A DNA stretch of 64,000 nucleotides from an uncultured Bacilli bacterium (GCA_934098455.1 CAKOOU010000001.1:199933-263932), one strand, 5' to 3'; positions 9,814-20,045 are shown, numbered from the stretch's first letter. The notes: a model not told the origin generated them from the letters alone. Program-made: numbers and translations.

Positions 9814-11562
9814 ATGAAAAATACCAATACACTTTTAAAAGAATTAAATGATATGATAGAAAATAAAAAGAATAATATAAAAGATACTAAAAACAATAAA
9901 AATATAGTAACTAAAGCATTTGAAATATTATCAAGTTTAAAAAAAGAAAATAACGTAGAGGCAATCAATGAATTTGAAGAGGCAATGAATAATAAAGAAA
10001 ATGGAATCCAAAAAGAATATTCAAACAAGAATTATGATGGAGCAATAAACAGATTAAAAGGTTTTATAAATAAATATAATAAGAATAAAGATAATATATT
10101 ATTTATTGATAAGGAAATTATTACAGAAATTTTAAGTTCAAAAATGTATTCTGGAATAGAAATAAATAATATAAATGAAAAAATAAAAGAATATGAAACT
10201 AATATTGAAAAAAATAAAGAAAATATTGACCCTAGTAAATATAATGAGTATAAAGAAAATTTAAAAGATTTAGTATCTTTAAAAAATAAAATATTTAATT
10301 TATTTGACGAGTTAATAAAAATAGTTGGAAACAATATAGAAGATAATGAGTATTGGACAAAAGAGGCTGTTAAAATAGAATCAGAAATTAAAGAAAAATA
10401 TGGAGAAGAAGTATCTTCAAAATTAGTAAATAAAGTAAATGATATCAGTAAACACTACTCAAATGCTCTTCATTATGAAAATATTATTGAAGTAAATGAA
10501 TATTATGAAATATCAGGAATAAACAAAAATAATAATAAAGAAGATATAAAAGAAGATAACATAGAAACAGACACTAATAAAAATACCAACACAGAAGCAA
10601 TAAATAATGATATTCCTAAACTAACAGGTGAAGTATTAGAAGAAGAAAATGATAAAAAAGAAGAAATTAAAGAAGAGAATAAAGAAGGAAAACCACTTGG
10701 ATTAGAAGGTAAAGTTGAAGAACCTGAAAAAGACAAAAAACCTATAAAGAAAAGATGTAAAGTAAAGAAAGTAATAAAAGATGCAAAAGAATGGTTTGAA
10801 AAACACCCTGTAATAAAAAGAATAGTTTTAGGATTGGCATTATGTTTAACAATACATATGGGACTATCTGCATTAATGGTAGTAAACAGTGCATTATGGA
10901 CAGCTCTAGGTGGAAAAGGAGCAATGTGTGGATTCCTTCATATGGTAAATCTAGGTTTATCAAAAGTAACAACTTTAGGAACATTCAAATATGTTGCAGA
11001 GAGTGGACATTACGTTAATGCAGCAGGAAGCGTACTTTATGAAGCAGTTGCACCAAAAATAATAGAAGCATTAACTGAGTTAGCGATTTCAATACCATTA
11101 TCTAAACATATAATAAATAAAATAAAAAATGTAGGTAAGAAACAAGAACAACCAAAAGAGCCTGAAAATAAAGAAGAGCCAAAAGATAAAAAAATAGAAG
11201 AATTAGAGCAAAGAATAAAAGAACTTGAAGAAAAGTTAAAACAAAAAGACAACGAAATAAATAATTACAAAGATAAATATAAAACTGCTCTAACTACAAC
11301 TAAAGAATCATTATTATTACAAGAAAAAAACAAACAACAAAATTATAATGCAGATGATTTCTTAACACAAAATGATATCGAAGCAAGAAATAAAAGAAAA
11401 TATAAATTATTAGATGACTTATTAAAAGCAAAAGAAGAATATAAAAATAATCCAACAGAAGAAAATAAAATTAAAATAGAAAAACTGCAAGTTAGAATTA
11501 ATAATCTAGAAAATAGTAAAAACTATGTAGAAGATAAAATAGAAAAAGGAAAAGGAAAATAA
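9814..11562 (+). CDS. Hypothetical coiled-coil / membrane / coiled-coil protein (582 aa)
   Basis: 'ggagag' SD. Lys/Glu/Asn-rich predicted coiled coils flank a Gly/Ala-rich hydrophobic core ('IVLGLALCLTIHMGLSALMVVNSALWTALGGKGAMCGFLHMVNLGL'). I recognise no family. Confidence 0.5.
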   Translation: MKNTNTLLKELNDMIENKKNNIKDTKNNKNIVTKAFEILSSLKKENNVEAINEFEEAMNNKENGIQKEYSNKNYDGAINRLKGFINKYNKNKDNILFIDKEIITEILSSKMYSGIEINNINEKIKEYETNIEKNKENIDPSKYNEYKENLKDLVSLKNKIFNLFDELIKIVGNNIEDNEYWTKEAVKIESEIKEKYGEEVSSKLVNKVNDISKHYSNALHYENIIEVNEYYEISGINKNNNKEDIKEDNIETDTNKNTNTEAINNDIPKLTGEVLEEENDKKEEIKEENKEGKPLGLEGKVEEPEKDKKPIKKRCKVKKVIKDAKEWFEKHPVIKRIVLGLALCLTIHMGLSALMVVNSALWTALGGKGAMCGFLHMVNLGLSKVTTLGTFKYVAESGHYVNAAGSVLYEAVAPKIIEALTELAISIPLSKHIINKIKNVGKKQEQPKEPENKEEPKDKKIEELEQRIKELEEKLKQKDNEINNYKDKYKTALTTTKESLLLQEKNKQQNYNADDFLTQNDIEARNKRKYKLLDDLLKAKEEYKNNPTEENKIKIEKLQVRINNLENSKNYVEDKIEKGKGK

Positions 11563-11563
11563 A

Positions 11564-11842
11564 ATGGAAAAAGAAACATTAATAACATTAGACGATAACA
11601 CTGAATATGCTTTATTAGATGAAACAACTATAGATGATACAAAATATTTCTTTGCAGTAAGAATAGACCCAACTACAAAAAATCCAACAACCGAATATGA
11701 AGTATTTGAAGAAGAAGTTGATGGCGAAGACATATATATGAACGCAATAGATGAAAGCGATTTCAAACAAGCAATACTATTAGATTTCACTAATAATTAT
11801 ATGAATACAGTAATGGATATAATGGATGATAAGACTGAATAG
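11564..11842 (+). CDS. Small acidic protein, DUF1292-like
   Basis: The ATG lies 1 nt after the upstream stop. The pattern 'ITLDDNTEYALLDE..DDTKYFFAV...EYEVFEEEVDGEDIYMNAIDESDF' resembles the YrzB/DUF1292 family. Confidence 0.45.
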   Translation: MEKETLITLDDNTEYALLDETTIDDTKYFFAVRIDPTTKNPTTEYEVFEEEVDGEDIYMNAIDESDFKQAILLDFTNNYMNTVMDIMDDKTE

Positions 11843-11967: not shown

Positions 11968-12255
11968 ATGGCAAAATATGTATGTGATTTTGATAAAGTG
12001 AATAATACAATAAAAAAATTAAATAATTACAAAGATAATATTTCAAAATCAATAAAAAAATACAATGAAGAAATAGATAATATAGCATCTGGATATCAAG
12101 GTACTGCAAGAGATATTATGATACAGAAAATAAATATGAATATAGAAAACATGAAAAAAATAATAGAAAATATAAACAATATAATAAATCATATTGAAAA
12201 AAGTAGTAAAAAAATTTATGAAGCTGAAGAAAAATTATCCTCACTAAAAATATAG
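11968..12255 (+). CDS. Small all-helical protein (95 aa), WXG100/Lap-like candidate T7SS accessory
   Basis: 'aggagagg' SD, ~95 aa, predicted helix-turn-helix hairpin with central 'SGYQGTARD' (an aromatic-x-G turn). It lies directly upstream of an LXG-like effector. Confidence 0.5.
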   Translation: MAKYVCDFDKVNNTIKKLNNYKDNISKSIKKYNEEIDNIASGYQGTARDIMIQKINMNIENMKKIIENINNIINHIEKSSKKIYEAEEKLSSLKI

Positions 12256-12263
12256 GTGGTATT

Positions 12264-12554
12264 ATGAATTTTAACGTAGATGATTATGAAATATTTGATT
12301 TATTAAAAAGTAGTAATTCAATAGAAGATATGTATTTTAACATAAATCTAAACTCTATAAAAAATGAAATTATGGATTTATGTAGCGAAGAGTATTTTTA
12401 TGGACCAATATCAAATAATGTGAAAGAAAGTTACAATAAAATAGATAAAGAAGCTAAAAATATTATTAATCGTTTAAAAAATATTTCTTCATTAAGTACT
12501 AATTTTAAATTTAATTATAAAATTGCTGATAAAAATGCTAGTAATAGGAGTTAG
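12264..12554 (+). CDS. Small helical protein (96 aa), candidate second T7SS targeting partner
   Basis: 'taggtgg' SD. Its size and position match the second small partner gene of LXG operons. It has no TM segment and no signal peptide. Confidence 0.4.
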   Translation: MNFNVDDYEIFDLLKSSNSIEDMYFNINLNSIKNEIMDLCSEEYFYGPISNNVKESYNKIDKEAKNIINRLKNISSLSTNFKFNYKIADKNASNRS

Positions 12555-12556
12555 AA

Positions 12557-13537
12557 ATGAATTTTAATTATGAAATAGATATTTCCAATATTTTTAATAA
12601 ATGTAACGAATTAACATATAGCATTTCAGATAATGTTTGGAGTGGACAATCTAAAGAAAATTTTCTTAAACAATTTGAAAATTTTATAAATGAATATAAA
12701 GTAACTATGGAAAAACAAGTGGAATTATTGAATTCAATAAACGTAAAATATTCAAAATATATAGAAGAAAAAAAAGAATTAGAACAAAAAAATAAAATGC
12801 TTAATACTTATACAAATCAACTTAACAAATTAAAAGATAATATTTTAGATAATGTTGTAGCCATTAAAATAAAACATGACATTAATAATTTAAAAATATA
12901 TATTGATAATAATCTAAAAAAAATAGAAAATATAAAAAAACAAATAATTGAAGATATAGAGCAAATAAAAAAATTAGGAAAAAATAAGAATATTTTAATA
13001 ACTGGAATTACTATTCCTGAAAGAAATGATGCGCCTGTTACTACAGATGGAGTATCTAGCAAGTGGTATAGTAGCGACGATAACTGGTATTGGAGAGGTG
13101 GAAATATTAACCAATGCACGGGCTACGCTTTTGGAAGATTTAATGAAATAGCAGCAGCAAATGGGTGTAGAATATTAGATAGCAATAAAAGTATGGGGAA
13201 TGGGAAAGATTTTTATAGCGTGGGTACATCATACGGATTTAATACTTCTAATAAAATAGAGGATATACAAAATGGTGACACAATATCTTGGGCTTATAGT
13301 AACGCTCCATACGGACACGTATCAGTAGTAGAAAATGTTACAAAAAATAAAAATGGTGAAATAACTTCAATAACAATATCAGAAGGAAAAATGTATAATG
13401 GCACAGGTGCAATTAAATACAAAAAAACAACATATACAGGCCCTAATGCACTAAATGATTTAAAAAATCGTTCAATAAGACGTGGAAGTGAAAGTATATT
13501 CCAAGGATTAGTTCACCAAACAAAAAATAAGGAGTAG
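12557..13537 (+). CDS. WXG/LXG-like N-terminal helical domain fused to a CHAP peptidoglycan amidase/endopeptidase
   Basis: No signal peptide. The N-terminal ~150 aa are helical with 'VWSGQSKENF'. The C-terminal CHAP domain has Cys 'NQCTGYAFGRF' and His 'YGHVSVVE'. Confidence 0.7.
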   Translation: MNFNYEIDISNIFNKCNELTYSISDNVWSGQSKENFLKQFENFINEYKVTMEKQVELLNSINVKYSKYIEEKKELEQKNKMLNTYTNQLNKLKDNILDNVVAIKIKHDINNLKIYIDNNLKKIENIKKQIIEDIEQIKKLGKNKNILITGITIPERNDAPVTTDGVSSKWYSSDDNWYWRGGNINQCTGYAFGRFNEIAAANGCRILDSNKSMGNGKDFYSVGTSYGFNTSNKIEDIQNGDTISWAYSNAPYGHVSVVENVTKNKNGEITSITISEGKMYNGTGAIKYKKTTYTGPNALNDLKNRSIRRGSESIFQGLVHQTKNKE

Positions 13538-13541
13538 AATT

Positions 13542-14513
13542 ATGATTAAGTTTTTAATTGATACAGAAAATATGAATATAATAAAAGATAAACTTAAAAT
13601 AATTGATAATGATTTTTGTGATTTTTCAAACGATTTGAATAGTATATCTATAGGAGACGATGAATTTGATTTTAAAGGAGCGATTAATTCAATTATTGGA
13701 AATGCTGAAATATGTTCACAAAAGATTAACACTGCAATAAATAACTTAAATGAAATAGTAAATACACATACACAAATTCAAAATTCTAGTAGTTTAGATT
13801 TAGAATTTATTAATAATTATAATTTTTCAAATGTTCAAAATACTAATACAAAACAGCATAATGAAAAATATGTTGTGAAAAAAGGAGATACCTTATCACA
13901 TATTGCACAAAAATATAATTTAAGAGTAGAAGATATTGCTAAAGCAAATAATATAAAAAATGTAAATTTAATAATTACAGGTTCAGTATTAAATATTCCA
14001 AATTCAAAAAATAAGAAAAAAGAAGAAAAAATTGAAGTATTGAATGTTAACACTAAAATGAACAATAAGGTACAACAAGAAAATAATAATCAAAATAATT
14101 ATACATATAAATCCGTTGGTAACTTTAAGGTGACTAATAATAACAAAAAATATAATTTGAGTTCTGAAGAGTACAATGTTTTATGTGCAATTGTTGCTGC
14201 AGAATGTGATAAATCATCAGATGATGCTTTAGCAGTGATTTCAGTAATTTTAAATAGGTGTGAAAATAGCGCTTGGATTAACTCTCATGGTACATCTCCA
14301 TACAAACAAGCAACTGCAAAAAATCAATTTGTAGTATTTCAAGAGGGTTATTACAAAAAATATTTGGGAGATAATTGTCCTAAAAATGTAAAACAAGCTG
14401 TTAGCGATGCTTGTAATGGAATAAGAAATAACAAATTTTTATCTTTTAGGTCTAACTCATCAACAGGATATAGCAATAACTTAATAACAACAAGTGGTAA
14501 TAGATATAAATAA
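13542..14513 (+). CDS. Helical N-domain + LysM + SleB/CwlJ-type cell-wall hydrolase
   Basis: No signal peptide. The N-terminal ~95 aa are helical with 'FDFKGAINS'. LysM is 'YVVKKGDTLSHIAQKYNLRVEDIAKANNI..LNIP'. The hydrolase_2-like region is 'LCAIVAAECD..ALAVISVILNRCEN..KNQFVVF'. Confidence 0.7.
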   Translation: MIKFLIDTENMNIIKDKLKIIDNDFCDFSNDLNSISIGDDEFDFKGAINSIIGNAEICSQKINTAINNLNEIVNTHTQIQNSSSLDLEFINNYNFSNVQNTNTKQHNEKYVVKKGDTLSHIAQKYNLRVEDIAKANNIKNVNLIITGSVLNIPNSKNKKKEEKIEVLNVNTKMNNKVQQENNNQNNYTYKSVGNFKVTNNNKKYNLSSEEYNVLCAIVAAECDKSSDDALAVISVILNRCENSAWINSHGTSPYKQATAKNQFVVFQEGYYKKYLGDNCPKNVKQAVSDACNGIRNNKFLSFRSNSSTGYSNNLITTSGNRYK

Positions 14514-14514
14514 T

Positions 14515-14531
14515 GTAAAAAAATGTAAACA
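14515..14531 (+). promoter_or_regulatory. Copy 2 of recurrent motif (GTAAAAAAATGTAAACA)
   Basis: Direct heptamer repeat ATGTAAA-aaa-ATGTAAA, about 25 nt upstream of the esx promoter -10 box. Confidence 0.4.
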
Positions 14532-14555
14532 TAAAATATAATAATCAAAATATTA

Positions 14556-14564
14556 TGATATAAT
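14556..14564 (+). promoter_or_regulatory. Extended -10 promoter element (TGATATAAT) for the WXG100 pair
   Basis: TG at 14556-14557 and TATAAT at 14559-14564, 25 nt upstream of the 'aggagg' SD of the 14590 ORF. Confidence 0.5.
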
Positions 14565-14589
14565 CTAATTAACATAGGAGGTAATATTT

Positions 14590-14889
14590 ATGAACAATGG
14601 CTTACATGCTGAAACTGAATCTATTTATCAAGAAGGCAACAATACAATAAATAATTCTGAAAATTTTTCAAATTTGATAATGAATTTAAACGACAATGTA
14701 AACGAATTAATGGGAATATGGAATGGACCCTCTGCAAATATTTTTAAATCTGAATGTGATAGACAAATTGTAGAATTAAGAGAATTTAATAATATATTAA
14801 ATACAATGGGACAAAATATTGTTAAAGGTTCTCAAATGCTAGATGATGCAGAAAATCAAAATATTGCAGATGCAAAAAAACTATTTTAG
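14590..14889 (+). CDS. esxA: WXG100 family protein (EsxA-like)
   Basis: 99 aa with a canonical central 'GIWNGPSANIF' W-x-G turn, a helical hairpin, and a strong 'taggaggt' SD. Confidence 0.75.
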   Translation: MNNGLHAETESIYQEGNNTINNSENFSNLIMNLNDNVNELMGIWNGPSANIFKSECDRQIVELREFNNILNTMGQNIVKGSQMLDDAENQNIADAKKLF

Positions 14890-14898
14890 GAGGTAAAT

Positions 14899-15198
14899 AT
14901 GAACGAGTTTGAACAAAAAGATTTTGCCAGCGCTAGAGCATATGCAGAGTCAATAAAAAATGCCGCTGATAATATCTTAGAAATATTTAATGATATAGAT
15001 AATTCCATGAAAAGATTGTATGGTGAATTTTGGCAAAGTAGCGGAGCAGACGTTTCCAATGGAAGATATCAAGAGCTTAGAACTAATTATGAAAATTTTT
15101 ATAACAAAGTTATAGCAATGAAAAATCATATAGATACTGTAACTAGCAGAAATGAAAATACTGACTCATCAGTAGGAAATATGTTGGGAAATATATAA
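14899..15198 (+). CDS. WXG100-like partner protein (non-canonical turn)
   Basis: 99 aa with 'taggaggt' SD. The central 'EFWQSSGADV' reads W-xxx-G rather than W-x-G. It is adjacent to the EsxA-like gene. Confidence 0.6.
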   Translation: MNEFEQKDFASARAYAESIKNAADNILEIFNDIDNSMKRLYGEFWQSSGADVSNGRYQELRTNYENFYNKVIAMKNHIDTVTSRNENTDSSVGNMLGNI

Positions 15199-15228
15199 AA
15201 CAATAAAAAAATCTTATTGTTTTTTTTA
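15199..15228 (+). terminator. Intrinsic terminator after the WXG100 pair
   Basis: AACAATAA-aaaaatc-TTATTGTT followed by TTTTTTT. Confidence 0.65.
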
Positions 15229-15273
15229 TTATAGTACTTTATAATTATAATAGATAGAAAGTAGGAAAACTAT

Positions 15274-18200
15274 ATGAAGTTCATTATCACAAATAGAAAA
15301 AAATTATATGTTAATGATATTGTGGAATACAATGAAAATTGGATAAAAGACAATAATGAAAACAATATAGTAAAAATTAATTATGCCAACAACGAATTTA
15401 TAGGTTATTCTAATAAAAGATATAAATTTTGTGATAATGATGTTCAGGATAAAGAAGTAGAAAAACTAAAATTAATTAGTGGAAATCAATATAAAATAAA
15501 TGACGTAGAAGAAAACAATGACATAACGCTTTATGTTTTAAATGAAAACAAAATAGAAACAAAGATTTTTTTTGTTGATGTAAATTTCAGTATTTCAGGA
15601 AATTCATCTGTTAGTTCTGAAATTATTATTAATAAAGAAGAATATAATTATTGTCAATTAAATTTTAAAAAAGATGGTAACAAATATAAACTTACCATAA
15701 AAGATAGTCCAATAACAATATATTTAAATAATGATGCAATTATAGAAGATAACATAGATTTAAAATTTGGAGATATCTTATTTATAGATGGTATATACCT
15801 AACAATAATTAATAATAAATTATTTATATATAATTATAATAATGATTTCATTGTAAAAAAATTAAAAGAAATTATTAAAGATAATTATCAATATGAAAAT
15901 TATATTGAAAAAAATGTAAAAACAAATAATAATACTAAATATAAAACATTTAAAAGAGTACCAAAAATACAGAGAAAAATTGAAACTAAAACATTTAACA
16001 TAGATTCTCCTAGTCAAGTAGAATTAAAGGAATCTATGCCATTATTTTACACGATGTTACCAATGTTTATGATGTCTATGACTTCGCTAATATCTGTTGC
16101 AAATATAATTGATGGAGTAACATTAAAAGAAAAAACATTTGAAGAAAGTATACCAAATTTAATTATATCAGGCAGTATGATTATAGCAATGCTAGCATAC
16201 CCAATATTGATTAATATATATTCTAAACGAAGAGAGAGTAAAAGAGAAATAAAAAGAATAGAAGAATATAAAGATTATATTTATGAACAAAAAAGAAAAA
16301 TACTAGAAGAAATGGAATTTCAAAAGAATATTCTTTTAAACAATTATTACGATACAAAACGTTCAGTAGATATAATCTTAAATTACAATAATGAATTATG
16401 GGAAAGAAAAAAACATTTTGAAGATTTTTTATCTATTTCACTAGGTAGTGGTAACGTTAAACCACAAATAGAATTAAAAATACCAGAAGAACATTTTAGT
16501 ATAGATAAAGATAAGTTAAGAATACAACTTCTTAAATTAAAAGAAGAAACAAAATACATAAAAGATGCGCCTATTGTATTTGATTTTCAAAAGAACAATA
16601 TTTCATCTTTTATTAGCAAAGATACTGAAATTATATATAAGTATGTAGATAGTTTCTTAATAAGGTTATTTGCAGTGTGTTCACCTTTTGACCTTAAAAT
16701 TGCTATATTTACAAATAAAGAAAACAAAAAATATTGGTGGAAATATTCTAATTTGCCATATTTATGGAATAACTCAAATAATTTAAGATTTTTTGCAAGT
16801 GATAAAACTTCTTATTCAAAAGTTGTAAACTATTTAGATGAAGAATACAGATTAAGAAATAACAATATAGAAAATAAAGATAACTTATGCAAATACATTT
16901 TATTTATTGATGATACAACTGCTATAAAAAATATTCCAATTATTAATGAGATGATGAAACAAAACAATAATGATTTCATTATAATATTTTTAACAGACAA
17001 TATAGATAAATTACCAAGCGAATGTAATAACTTTATATATTTAGATAAAGAAAAAAGTAAATATATTTCAAATGTTAATAAAGATTATATAGAAATGGAT
17101 TTTACACCAGACTATATAAACTATGATTTTTCAGATTGTATTTTGAATTTATCAAATATAGATTTAGACTCTTTTTCAAATAAATATATTTTACCAAAAA
17201 AATATGGCTTTTTAGAAATGTATAATTCAAAAGACATACAAAGCTTAAATATAAATAGTATTTGGAATTCAAATAAAATAAAAGATTCATTAGCAGTACC
17301 AATTGGTATAGATGAAAATGGAGAAATAATTGATCTTGATTTACATGAAAATGCACATGGACCACACGGATTAGTTGCTGGTATGACAGGAAGTGGAAAA
17401 TCCGAATTATTAATTACTTACATTTTGTCATTAGCAGTTAATTTCAGTCCATTAGATGTTCAATTTGTTTTAATAGATTATAAAGGTGGTGGATTGGCAA
17501 ATACATTTTATAATTCAAATATAGGAATGATTTTACCTCATGTTATAGGAGTTATAACAAATATTGACAATGCTTTCATTAATAGAAGTTTAACATCATT
17601 AAATAGTGAAATTACAAGAAGACAAAAATTATTTGCTGAAATTAGTATAAAATATAATGAAGGTAATTTAGATATATATAAATATAAAGCCTTATCAAAA
17701 ATATATAATGATATTCCACCACTAAGTCATTTATTTATAATTAGTGATGAATTTGCCGAGTTAAAAACTAAAAATCCAGAATTTATAGATAAATTAATTT
17801 CTATAGCCAGAATAGGTAGGTCACTAGGGATTCATCTTATATTAGCAACTCAAAAACCAAGTGGAATAGTTGATTCGCAAATATGGAGCAATTCAAAATT
17901 TAGAATATGTCTTAAAGTACAAGATAAAAATGATTCAAATGAAATAATAAATATACCAGATGCAGCATATATTAATGAAGTTGGAAGATTTTATTTACAA
18001 GTTGGATATAATGAATTATTTTTAAAAGGTCAAAGCGCATATAGCGGCGTAGAATATACTAATGATTCAGATGATGCAACAAATGAAAGCATAGATTTTA
18101 TTAATAATTATGGAGAATCATTCTTTAAAGTATTTACATTTGAAAAAAAAGAAAAAAAGAATCTCGGTAAAGAAGTAAATAATATTGTAAAAGCCATAAT

Positions 18201-19794
18201 AAACTATTCAAAGGAAAATAATTATAACATAAAACAATTATGGACAGAAATAATACCAAATAAAATATATTTTGAAGATCTTATTGTTAAATATAATTTT
18301 ACAAAAAACAATAATATTAAAACAATAATAGGAGAATATGATGCACCAGATTCGCAAAAAAAAGACTTGGCTACTATTGAATTAATTGGTAAAGGCAATA
18401 CAATTATTTATGGTATTATCGGGTCAGGAAAAGAATTAGTTTTAGAAACTATAACACATTCATTGATTAATTATTATAATTCAGATGAAATAAATTTATA
18501 TTTGTTAGACTTTGGTTCAGAAACATTATCGCTGTTTAAAAATACTCCACAAGTCGGAGATGTAGTTTTCATAAATGAAAAAGAGAAAATAATTAATTTA
18601 TTCAAATATATATCAAGTGTATTAAATGTAAGGAAAAAAATGTTTAGAGAATATAATGGAGATATTATTAATTATAATAAAGAAAACAACAATAAAATTT
18701 CAAATATTATAATAATAATCAATTTATTAGAAAATCTTTTTGATAATTATCCATCATTAGAAGAAGAATTTACTTCAATATTAAAAGAATGCAATCGATA
18801 TGGTATTTCTTTTGTTGCAACAACCAATGGAATAAATGGCATTAGAAATAAAATTACACAATACTTTTTGCAAAGTATAGCACTAGAATTAAAAGATAAA
18901 TATGATTATGCTAGCATATTTAATAAAAAAGTAAACGTTATACCAAATAAATATAAAGGTAGAGGAGTTATTTTATATGACAAGCCATACGAATTTCAAA
19001 CATGTTTAATATGTAAAGAAGACATAGACGAAAATGATTATATAAAAGCACTCAATAAAAAACTTGTTAATGCCGGAAATGAAAAAGTTAAACGAATACC
19101 AGTTTTACCTGAAAAAGTAACTTTTGATATCATAAAAAACAAATTGATTAATAATAAAATAATTCCTATAGGAATAGAAGTTGAAAATTTAACAATATTA
19201 AATTATGAGTTTACAACAGAAAAAGTTAATGTAATAACTTCTATGGACAACAATTTTATGTATAATATGATACATAGTTTAGAAAAAAATATTATGTCAT
19301 TTAAAAATAATACATTATTTATATTAAATTCAAATAAAAAATATAACAATATTAATAACTTAAATATTATAGATAAAGACTATTATATATTTATAAAAGA
19401 ATTAAAAAATTACATAAAAAAATCTCCTTTAGAAATAACTACATACATTATATTAATAGGAATTTATGAAATATATAATAATTTCAGTATTCTCGAGAAA
19501 AAAGAATTTAAAAATGTATTGTCAGAATTAAATAAAAAAGATAATTTTTCTGTAATAATTGTTGATAACTATTATGATTTGAAAAAATTAGAATTTGAAG
19601 AATTTTATAAGGGATGTATAGATAATAATAAAGGCATATGGATAGGAAATGGAATTGGAGATCAAATGCTATTTAGAGTTAATAGAATACCAAGAGAATA
19701 TAGAGATAATATAAATAATAGTTATGGTTTTGTTATAGAATCTGGCAATATAAAAAAAATAAAATTGATAGATTATTACGGTGATGAAAAATGA
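15274..19794 (+). CDS. essC: EssC/YukB FtsK-SpoIIIE family T7SSb ATPase
   Basis: 1506 aa with two TM helices (about aa 255-315). Contains '[24 protein letters not shown]' (Walker A), '[13 protein letters not shown]', and '[19 protein letters not shown]'. The second P-loop is degenerate ('[10 protein letters not shown]') and the third module has no P-loop, as in other EssC proteins. Confidence 0.9.
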   Translation: [1506 protein letters not shown]

Positions 19795-20045
19795 TAGATA
19801 AGTTAAATATTCAAATAATTATTCCTTATATATATAAAAAATATGATTTATTAATACCAATCAATCAAACAATAGGTCAAACAATTTATACAATAATAAA
19901 AGGATTAAATATTTTAAATAATGACATATTTAAAGAAAATAATAGTTTAAATTTATATAATGCATTAGATGGGAAAGTATATAAATTAGATGAGATAATA
20001 AATGATACAGATATTAAAAATGGAAGTATTCTAATTTTGGCTTAA
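19791..20045 (+). CDS. esaB: YukD/EsaB-like ubiquitin-fold T7SS protein
   Basis: 84 aa with an ATGA overlap with essC. Pattern 'YDLLIPINQTIGQ...' with a C-terminal 'DIKNGSILIL'. Confidence 0.6.
   Translation: MIDKLNIQIIIPYIYKKYDLLIPINQTIGQTIYTIIKGLNILNNDIFKENNSLNLYNALDGKVYKLDEIINDTDIKNGSILILA

Follow-up and report, generated by a model that had tools for sequence, protein, structure and literature searches.

How substrates of type VIIb secretion systems (T7SSb) pass through the thick Gram-positive cell wall is an open question (PMC10765036, PMC13492133). The only characterised hydrolase associated with a type VII system is EssH, which is described as specific to Staphylococcus aureus loci, with no homologues in Lactobacillales (PMC13492133, PMC10765036). 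EssH is a CHAP hydrolase required for type VII secretion and for EsaA assembly in S. aureus; it has a canonical Sec signal peptide of 24 amino acids (aa) and is explicitly not a type VII substrate (PMC13059805). Described here is a 64,000-nucleotide stretch of DNA from an uncultured Bacilli bacterium (GCA_934098455.1 CAKOOU010000001.1:199933-263932, termed the window), which encodes two wall hydrolases upstream of essC, the ATPase gene of a T7SSb. One is a CHAP protein and the other a LysM protein with a SleB-like domain. Both enzymes are probably substrates of the adjacent T7SSb, exported via their WXG100/LXG-like N-terminal domains. The reading favoured here is that both are exported in this way and act mainly on the wall of the producer itself, for which the probability is put at roughly 0.55.

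Large T7SSb substrates can have multiple small helical partners: EsxB, EsxC and EsxD for EsaD, and Lap1 and Lap2 for the LXG toxins (PMC13492133). The cargos of characterised LXG proteins are NADase, lipid II phosphatase, membrane-depolarising or ADP-ribosyl cyclase proteins, or are of unknown activity (PMC13492133, a 2026 review). CHAP proteins found in some type VII loci have no established link to secretion (PMC13492133). In a 2012 survey of polymorphic toxins, NlpC/P60 and glucosaminidase toxin domains were tied to type VI secretion and PVC systems, not to type VII secretion. A T7SSb substrate that is a peptidoglycan hydrolase was not found in the searchable literature, where absence is not proof. 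This agrees with the first-pass annotation, a model's reading of the window sequence, which regarded two different muralytic folds on WXG-like carriers as an uncharacterised arrangement.

Two hydrolases with helical N-terminal domains

The CHAP protein is 326 aa in length and is encoded on the + strand at positions 12557-13537. Its WXG100/LXG-like carrier N-domain comprises residues 1-140 (12557..12976), and a CHAP amidase/endopeptidase domain comprises residues 178-326 (13088..13537). The latter matches Pfam PF05257 over residues 178-277 (E=5.8e-12, 46.4 bits, cutoff 26). The catalytic Cys187 (nucleotides (nt) 13115-13117) and His254 (nt 13316-13318) are invariant across homologues, and so is Glu276. 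The AlphaFold2 model of the carrier shows a short helix of residues 9-22 and two long helices, 33-91 and 96-140, with W28-S-G30 situated in the first turn. The pLDDT is ~90 in the long helices, and confidence in the turn is low. W28 and G30 (W28-x-G30, nt 12638-12646) are also invariant among homologues. A helical N-domain with a W-x-G turn, followed by a CHAP domain, had been described in the first-pass annotation; the invariant tryptophan and glycine and the Pfam CHAP score bear this out. The carrier architecture is LXG-like, but the carrier is not a member of the Pfam LXG family. Apart from the query, a phmmer search of 1.84 billion representatives with the carrier N-domain returned a single protein, the distant relative P0146, from which it follows that the carrier family is narrow and evolves fast.

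The LysM protein (323 aa, 13542-14513, + strand) consists of a hairpin N-domain of residues 1-91 (13542..13814), a LysM peptidoglycan-binding domain of residues 108-153 (13863..14000) and a SleB/CwlJ-type (Hydrolase_2) lytic-transglycosylase-like domain of residues 195-323 (14124..14513). The hairpin is modelled by AlphaFold2 as helices 8-33 and 44-91 (pLDDT 81-93), and its turn has no W-x-G. A word-indexed search for homologues of the 95-aa hairpin gave none. The LysM domain is recognized by Pfam over residues 110-153 (53.1 bits, E=3e-14), and Foldseek and PDB searches also give LysM matches. The C-terminal domain of the window protein scores below threshold for Hydrolase_2 (PF07486; 19 bits over residues 227-306, cutoff 27), and the homologue in locus L015 passes the cutoff with 32.2 bits. 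At the structural level, a Foldseek search with the AlphaFold2 model finds the SleB catalytic domain 4fet with probability 1.0 and TMt 0.59; the SleB structures 4fet/4f55 range over probabilities of 0.97-1.0 and TMt values of 0.57-0.59. A profile search of PDB sequences gives a SleB match at E ~0.07 only. Glu221, in an AAE motif (nt 14202-14204), is invariant across homologues. Thus, of the earlier description of this protein, the helical N-domain, the LysM domain and the SleB-like fold stand, but the window protein does not reach the Pfam Hydrolase_2 cutoff.

More than 280 other proteins share 60-66% identity with the SleB-like domain. Relatives of this ~130-aa C-domain (P0026-P0126) display many N-terminal architectures, some with phage-tail-lysozyme (PF18013) or CW_7 domains. 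Among gut Firmicutes the domain is highly mobile. LysM-containing proteins are also found in tandem arrays in locus L013 (9039-10732) and locus L014 (1111-3789). The arrayed proteins are 257-311 aa in length and a Hydrolase_2-type domain is present only in the last one (298 aa). Signal peptides and helical carriers are lacking, and the N-terminus of all these proteins is Gly-rich and includes a conserved '...RYQ...' motif, e.g. MSVSTMFDGNGGGNRVSRYQ. A similar layout of gene sizes is seen in locus L039 (17507-19187), where a 263-aa protein with a C-terminal LysM is followed by a 298-aa protein that has no Pfam match.

No signal peptide and no transmembrane (TM) segment was found in either hydrolase by a hydropathy scan, as the first-pass annotation had stated. 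The highest Kyte-Doolittle values over 19-residue windows are 0.42 for the CHAP protein and 0.86 for the LysM protein; the N-terminal 10-residue maxima are 0.36 and 0.45, respectively, and both N-termini are polar. As the open reading frames (ORFs) are maximal, no upstream extension can hide a signal peptide. About twenty paralogues with the SleB-like domain, each ~250 aa in length, are present in related metagenome-assembled genomes (MAGs). These start with a classical signal anchor, MRKTVSNLLVIGTQLLIVGLFF..., with hydropathy values of 2.4-3.4 over 12-residue windows, and have no essC within 10 kb. Because the signal-anchored paralogues are found outside T7 modules, the SleB-like catalytic domain is considered to be normally extracytoplasmic and Sec-routed. 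In the T7 module, the helical domain takes the place of the signal anchor.

Phages have signal-less endolysin-like enzymes. By analogy, the two hydrolases might be cytoplasmic and reach the wall only on lysis of the cell, or via a holin-like route, in a process of programmed lysis or fratricide. The lack of a signal peptide in both proteins would fit this explanation, as would the fusion of some C-domain homologues to phage-tail-lysozyme or CW_7 domains. However, there is no holin, integrase or phage gene in the locus, and base composition is uniform in the window, which is very AT-rich throughout (18-29% G+C); a phage or lysis origin is therefore unsupported. In addition, the module is chromosomal and is syntenic with essC and WXG100 genes across species. 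Release by lysis is thus highly improbable, and export by the adjacent T7SSb is the explanation pursued below.

Small helical partners and the secretion apparatus

The ORF listing shows eight closely spaced genes on the + strand that fill positions 11968-20045. The two hydrolase genes are preceded by p95 (11968..12255, 95 aa) and p96 (12264..12554, 96 aa), and are followed by wxgA (14590..14889, 99 aa), wxgB (14899..15198, 99 aa), essC (15274..19794, 1506 aa) and p84 (19791..20045, 84 aa). Gaps are 8 nt between p95 and p96, 2 nt between p96 and the CHAP gene, and 4 nt between the two hydrolase genes. Further downstream, 76 nt separate the LysM gene from wxgA, 9 nt separate wxgA from wxgB and 75 nt separate wxgB from essC; the start of p84 overlaps the essC stop codon by 4 nt. 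A GGAG-type ribosome-binding site precedes each of the eight genes. The gaps of 2-8 nt within the four-gene block leave no space for an interleaved immunity gene, and the remaining ORFs of the region are antisense and lie inside genes, which is expected in AT-rich DNA. The order of genes, with two small helical ORFs before the hydrolases and a WXG100 pair and essC after them, and the lack of an interleaved immunity gene are both as annotated earlier. An Rfam search of the window gave no match, and a scan for promoters and terminators is uninformative at 22% G+C (98 promoter-like sites, with 106 expected).

The p95 protein is a WXG100-family helical partner and a paralogue of wxgA. It passes the Pfam WXG100 cutoff (PF06013; 30.9 bits, cutoff 27.3); its turn is Y-Q-G in the window copy and W-x-G in orthologues. 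The WXG100 protein wxgA is EsxA-like and has an I-W-N-G turn. It is just below the cutoff with 26.7 bits (E=6.8e-6), and has 30.8 bits with TIGR03930. The wxgB protein, an EsxB-like partner, is also just below the cutoff (26.1 bits, E=1e-5), and is 51-56% identical in orthologous loci. A Pfam match was not found for p96, a WXG100-like partner. The small proteins and the N-domains are connected by profile comparisons. With hhalign, the p95 family matches the wxgA family with 88% probability, and it matches the hairpin of the LysM protein with 88% probability and E=2.9e-6; the link from the p95 family to the carrier of the CHAP protein is weak (34% probability). Hidden Markov model searches of a set of 1018 ORFs give reciprocal matches of p95 and wxgA at 1e-5 to 1e-9, cross-matches of p96 and wxgB at 5e-4 and 5.5e-5, and a match from p95 to the hairpin at 4.5e-5. 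On account of these cross-matches, p95 and p96 resemble a diverged duplicate of wxgA and wxgB, and the hairpin resembles a p95-like domain. The N-domains of the two hydrolases are thus WXG100-superfamily-like in fold and in remote profile links, and are not Pfam LXG members.

Orthologues of p95 and of p96 are found in seven lineages. The seven p96 orthologues are ~25-60% identical and their alignment has only six invariant columns, of which four are F, G, Y and D. The F and G form an invariant turn, F45-x-G47. The Y and D belong to a Y85-x-x-x-D89 motif near the C-terminus (nt 12516-12530; NYKIAD in the window), which is invariant in 7/7 orthologues and probably lies near the end of a helix. 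The Asp of this motif aligns with an invariant Asp in wxgB. A YxxxD/E motif is the export arm of substrates of the type VIIa secretion system (T7SSa). In T7SSb, Lap1 has an FxxxD motif close to the end of its helix 2; the complex forms without this motif, but export of the LXG toxin requires it (PMC9600955). By analogy with Lap1, p96 is proposed to be an export-arm and targeting factor. The families of Lap1 (DUF3130/TIGR04197) and Lap2 (DUF3958) are absent from the best 25 of the 63 Pfam matches of p95 (E up to 1), from the Pfam matches of p96, and from the complete NCBIfam matches of both proteins (E up to 1). The sequence 'YEAEE' at the C-terminus of p95 was considered as a YxxxE signal and rejected, since the Tyr is not conserved in orthologues.

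EssC is a genuine FtsK/SpoIIIE-type T7SSb ATPase, with a score of 882.4 bits for TIGR03928 (T7_EssCb_Firm, cutoff 778.4) and TM-like windows within residues 261-461. The 84-aa protein is small and ubiquitin-like and is a probable EsaB/YukD analogue; it matches Pfam UBL_ZFAND1 at E=1.1e-4 and, weakly, YukD at E=0.04. Its position directly after essC is kept in loci L007, L010, L012 and L040. EsaA, EssA and EssB were not matched among the ORFs of the locus or the large or unannotated window ORFs that were scanned. Orthologous loci are likewise without these three components; besides essC and the gene for the 84-aa ubiquitin-like protein, they encode small helical proteins only. The T7SSb of this lineage is possibly minimal.

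The essC region is divided in some loci. It is split into three ORFs (868, 242 and 349 aa) at 12900-17441 in L010/L011, and consists of two ORFs (334 and 1164 aa) at 3554-8077 in L040, where the FtsK/SpoIIIE match is in the 1164-aa ORF only and the 334-aa ORF has no Pfam match. Pseudogenisation, programmed frameshifts or assembly errors may account for these splits.

Complex formation, EssC-dependent export, the enzymatic specificities and a self-acting role may be inferred as follows. Within the cytoplasm, p95 and p96 would assemble into a helical bundle with the N-domains of both enzymes, i.e. the carrier from the CHAP protein and the hairpin from the LysM protein. The p96 YxxxD would lie beside the WxG turn of the carrier, and together these would form a composite signal read by EssC. 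The bundle and its recognition by EssC are modelled on the LXG-Lap1-Lap2 and EsaD-EsxB-EsxC-EsxD complexes (PMC13492133). The CHAP enzyme and the SleB-like lytic transglycosylase would be exported jointly or successively. Outside the cell, LysM would hold the lytic transglycosylase on peptidoglycan, and the CHAP or NlpC/P60 enzyme would cut stem peptides. The most likely task of the exported pair would be to cut the producer's peptidoglycan, either to open the wall for T7SS cargo, at a locus with no recognisable EsaA conduit, or in a general autolysin-type remodelling. The pair would then be an equivalent of EssH that the T7SS itself exports, much as the flagellar apparatus exports FlgJ. The first-pass proposal that the two proteins are T7SS-exported muralytic enzymes is backed by comparative and structure-prediction evidence, from which export itself is inferred.

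Conservation of the gene quartet and the probable target of the enzymes

The genes p95, p96, CHAP and LysM represent a quartet that consists of a p95-like gene, a p96-like gene, a WxG carrier with an enzyme, and a hairpin with or without an enzyme. This quartet recurs in seven uncultured gut Bacilli lineages. The exact window proteins are found on more than 20 human-gut metagenome contigs, Hadza samples included, with identical gene order. The identical LysM protein is on 23 contigs, each 90% cluster has 2-3 members, and there is almost no within-species variation. In other species, where homologues are 37-90% identical, gene order is kept; the genes are therefore real and not chance ORFs. The six further lineages (homologues 37-64% identical) are represented by L040, L010/L011, L007/L008/L012, L009, L039 and L041, the last being a short contig. 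Related MAGs are labelled Bacilli or Tenericutes-like and have a low GC content. The essC gene and the 84-aa gene adjoin the quartet in four of the seven lineages (the window, L040, L010 and L007/L012), and L007/L012 have two quartet units in tandem upstream of essC.

The enzymes attached to the N-domains vary. CHAP follows the carrier in the window, L040, L010 and L007, NlpC/P60 follows it in L007, L009 and L039, and in P0146/L041 it is joined to a papain-like domain with a marginal Peptidase_C70 match. The hairpin is followed by a LysM-SleB-like region, by an unrelated domain (L041) or by none, in the form of a 119-aa stand-alone protein (L007/L012). The 119-aa ORF is directly after the NlpC/P60 carrier gene in L007 and L012. 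Its homology to the hairpin N-domain led to its rejection as a candidate immunity gene.

Further clusters are found in Bacilli MAGs that are more distant, namely L015 (9365-12391), L016 (47-5563) and L017 (8759-10703). In these, WXG100-like small ORFs are interleaved with hairpin-SleB-like and WxG-CHAP proteins, and with WxG or hairpin proteins that have unannotated C-domains; there is no essC within 10 kb. These clusters suggest a wider family of helical-carrier wall enzymes.

A number of results weigh against export and action on the own wall. The carrier alone matches Pfam WXG100 at E=0.0019 with 18.9 bits, below the 27.3 cutoff, and the best member of the carrier family reaches E=1.3e-4. 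It matches Pfam LXG (PF04740) at E=0.068 when taken alone and at 0.19 as part of the whole protein, with 12-13.5 bits and a cutoff of 26.5; only one of six carrier family members has an LXG match. The hairpin domain has no Pfam WXG100 or LXG match. Profile searches of PDB sequences with the carrier and with the hairpin gave coiled-coil noise only, with no solved T7 substrate. Similarly, Foldseek searches with the whole models of the CHAP protein and the LysM protein gave no match to a T7 substrate; most of what they retrieved reflects the catalytic domains, the LysM domain or generic coiled coils. Orthologues of p95 do not share the YxxxE of the window copy. In L009 and L039 the quartet, together with wxgA and wxgB, is situated between dnaJ and polC and does not adjoin essC. 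EsaA, EssA and EssB could sit elsewhere in the genome, as the scan covered the 64-kb window and the orthologous loci. Swapped C-domains on constant N-domains are a hallmark of antibacterial polymorphic toxins, and the L041 module lies beside two FemAB genes, which encode the type of factor that confers bacteriolysin immunity.

The domain scores bear on the earlier designation of the N-domains as WXG/LXG-like. The LXG-like architecture and the WXG100 profile links uphold this designation, but membership of the Pfam LXG family does not hold. The N-domains match no non-secretion family; the only signals are WXG100/LXG family-like, together with the links to the WXG100 proteins of the same locus.

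Another possibility is that the hydrolases are linked to essC only incidentally and are not exported by the T7SS. Their N-domains could be regulatory coiled coils, like those of PcsB/EnvC-type hydrolases under FtsEX control, or the proteins could cross no membrane at all and be placed on a spore by the mother cell, as are CwlJ, SafA and SleL, which have no signal. N-domain scores below the Pfam WXG100 and LXG cutoffs are consistent with this, and the CHAP protein has a weak Foldseek match to PcsB, which also has a coiled coil and CHAP (E=0.02, TM ~0.25). PcsB carries a Sec signal peptide, however, and the window hydrolases have none. With respect to spores, Hydrolase_2 and LysM domains are typical of spore-cortex and coat proteins, PDB matches include SleB, SleL/YaaH and SafA, and CwlJ is without a signal peptide. 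On the other hand, no sporulation gene was seen in the window, the related MAGs are of the Bacilli or Tenericutes-like, low GC kind mentioned above, and vegetative-type signal-anchored paralogues of the SleB-like domain exist. Against any incidental linkage are the invariant W-x-G, the N-domain profile links that lead to the locus's own WXG100 proteins, the presence of the quartet in seven lineages with essC adjoining in four, and the invariant YxxxD of p96. A merely incidental linkage of the two proteins to essC is thus very improbable.

Given export by the T7SS, the wall of the producer is favoured as the target on several grounds. No immunity gene was found inside or beside the module in any essC-linked locus examined. 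The hydrolases diverge about as fast as the machinery, as a comparison of the window with L010 shows: identity is 46% for the CHAP protein, 48% for the LysM protein, 47-56% for EssC, and 45 and 53% for wxgA and wxgB, respectively. Within species the hydrolases are almost invariant, and their genes sit upstream of essC among core genes. That EsaA, EssA and EssB are undetected in the locus and the scanned window ORFs also favours action on the own wall, as does the presence of wall-polymer biosynthesis genes that adjoin the T7 locus in several species.

Alternatively, the proteins may be T7SS-exported antibacterial effectors of the bacteriolysin type that lyse Gram-positive competitors from outside, with the producer protected by its own peptidoglycan chemistry or by an immunity factor from another locus. 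The constant carriers with swapped CHAP, NlpC/P60, papain-like, SleB-like and unknown enzymes form a polymorphic-toxin pattern. Resistance to peptidoglycan endopeptidases can come from FemABX-like factors, which make cells immune to lysostaphin and zoocin A, and two FemAB-family genes (L041 4156-6727, - strand) adjoin the distant carrier/hairpin module that encodes P0146. A wall glycosidase toxin secreted by a T7SSa, EatA, is known together with its Tap partners, and NlpC/P60 is among the predicted mycobacterial T7 toxin domains (PMC13444075). In addition, most characterised large T7SSb substrates are antibacterial toxins (PMC10765036, PMC13492133). However, no immunity gene was found in or beside the module of any locus with essC, and the 119-aa immunity candidate of L007 proves to be a homologue of the carrier hairpin. 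Conservation of the hydrolases is like that of core genes and they are nearly invariant within species. L041 is a short contig, on which the FemAB genes lie on the strand opposite to the module; the family has housekeeping functions as well, and these genes could serve immunity or simply housekeeping. An antibacterial function is possible but less probable, and own-wall action is preferred.

If the enzymes do act on the producer's own wall, a more specific proposal may tentatively be made. In this lineage, a minimal T7SSb, consisting of EssC, the ubiquitin-like protein and WXG100 proteins and lacking EsaA, EssA and EssB, might have a co-exported pair of endopeptidase and lytic transglycosylase as its conserved primary cargo, borne by a WXG-type carrier/hairpin pair not described before. 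The system would then be a Sec-independent, self-contained delivery route for autolysins that cut the wall of the producer. The secretion machine would then drill its own path, and perhaps would serve general cell-wall turnover. Confirmation of export would add peptidoglycan hydrolases to the repertoire of T7SSb substrates. It would also define a new family of carriers and partners with a YxxxD signal that links T7SSb to the T7SSa export arm, and would offer a minimal system, EssC plus small proteins, in which to dissect substrate recognition. In the human gut microbiota, it would point to an autolysin pathway that does not need Sec, or else to bacteriolytic weapons of a new, contact-independent class.

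Directly upstream of the module, at 9814-11842, are a 582-aa ORF and a 92-aa ORF separated by a 1-nt gap. In the 582-aa ORF, an N-terminal part that is helical or coiled-coil is followed by a hydrophobic segment rich in Gly and Ala, with TM-like 19-residue windows starting at residues 333-343, and by a coiled-coil tail rich in Lys and Glu. The 92-aa ORF is acidic. Neither has a significant Pfam or NCBIfam match. The two were considered as T7 core components and rejected, as they are present only in loci of the same species; because orthologous loci of other species do not have them, they are placed outside the conserved module. The pair could be a species-specific T7 cargo, e.g. a membrane-acting toxin and its partner, or be unrelated.

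Downstream of the T7 locus, positions 20183-62007 are occupied by what is apparently one long + strand block of wall/surface glycopolymer genes. It includes a GT4 WecA/TagO-like gene, an LtaS-like sulfatase, many glycosyltransferases and an acyltransferase, and also a 1083-aa O-antigen-ligase-GT4-WecG fusion. In L007 and L010, this fusion protein lies upstream of the module.

Comparison with known systems

The closest resemblance in architecture is to the LXG/Lap systems of T7SSb, such as TelA-D of S. intermedius. In both, a helical N-domain of ~150 aa is followed by a C-terminal enzyme with no Sec signal, two helical ORFs of ~100 aa are directly upstream, and EssC and WXG100 genes are in the locus. 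One partner has an aromatic residue followed by xxx-D, which is FxxxD in Lap1 and YxxxD in p96. There are also differences. Pfam LXG, DUF3130 and DUF3958 are unmatched here, and the turn is WxG rather than LxG. There is neither an immunity gene nor a DUF4176 chaperone. The second hydrolase is fused to an apparent third partner, and the genes are upstream of essC and are conserved like core genes. The cargo in this locus is a peptidoglycan hydrolase, which is unlike the LXG cargos listed above.

EssH of S. aureus is also a CHAP wall hydrolase with an N-terminal non-catalytic domain, it is encoded in a T7SSb locus, and the proposed role in opening the wall is the same. The window enzymes differ from EssH in that they have WXG-like carriers in place of a signal peptide. 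Furthermore, EssH works with EsaA, which was not found here, and the CHAP enzyme of the window is accompanied by an enzyme of the lytic-transglycosylase type.

The EsaD-EsxB-EsxC-EsxD complex of S. aureus is similar in that export of a large substrate involves several small partners, of WXG100 or WXG100-like type, whose genes lie nearby (PMC13492133). Unlike the situation with EsaD, one presumed partner in the quartet is itself fused to an enzyme. EsaD is a nuclease, and has an immunity protein, EsaG, and a chaperone, EsaE.

In the T7SSa, EatA-TapA1/A2 of Mycobacterium abscessus ESX-4 comprises a T7-secreted cell-wall glycoside hydrolase, the N-domain of which is helical, and a pair of small accessory proteins (PMC13444075). 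EatA differs in that it belongs to an Actinomycetota T7SSa, targets arabinogalactan, has an adjacent lipoprotein immunity gene and has a demonstrated antibacterial role (PMC13444075).

FlgJ and EtgA, of flagellar and injectisome type III systems, represent muralytic enzymes with no Sec signal that are exported by the very apparatus for which they open a way through peptidoglycan. FlgJ is the muralytic enzyme exported by the flagellar apparatus. EtgA has been discussed as a type III-exported wall hydrolase (PMC13059805). The similarity is an analogy only, as the secretion system, the protein folds and the envelope are all unrelated to those of the T7SSb described here.

Accordingly, T7SS substrates with helical carriers and small partners are known, and what would be new in this locus is the cargo class, the carrier/partner family and the apparently minimal apparatus.

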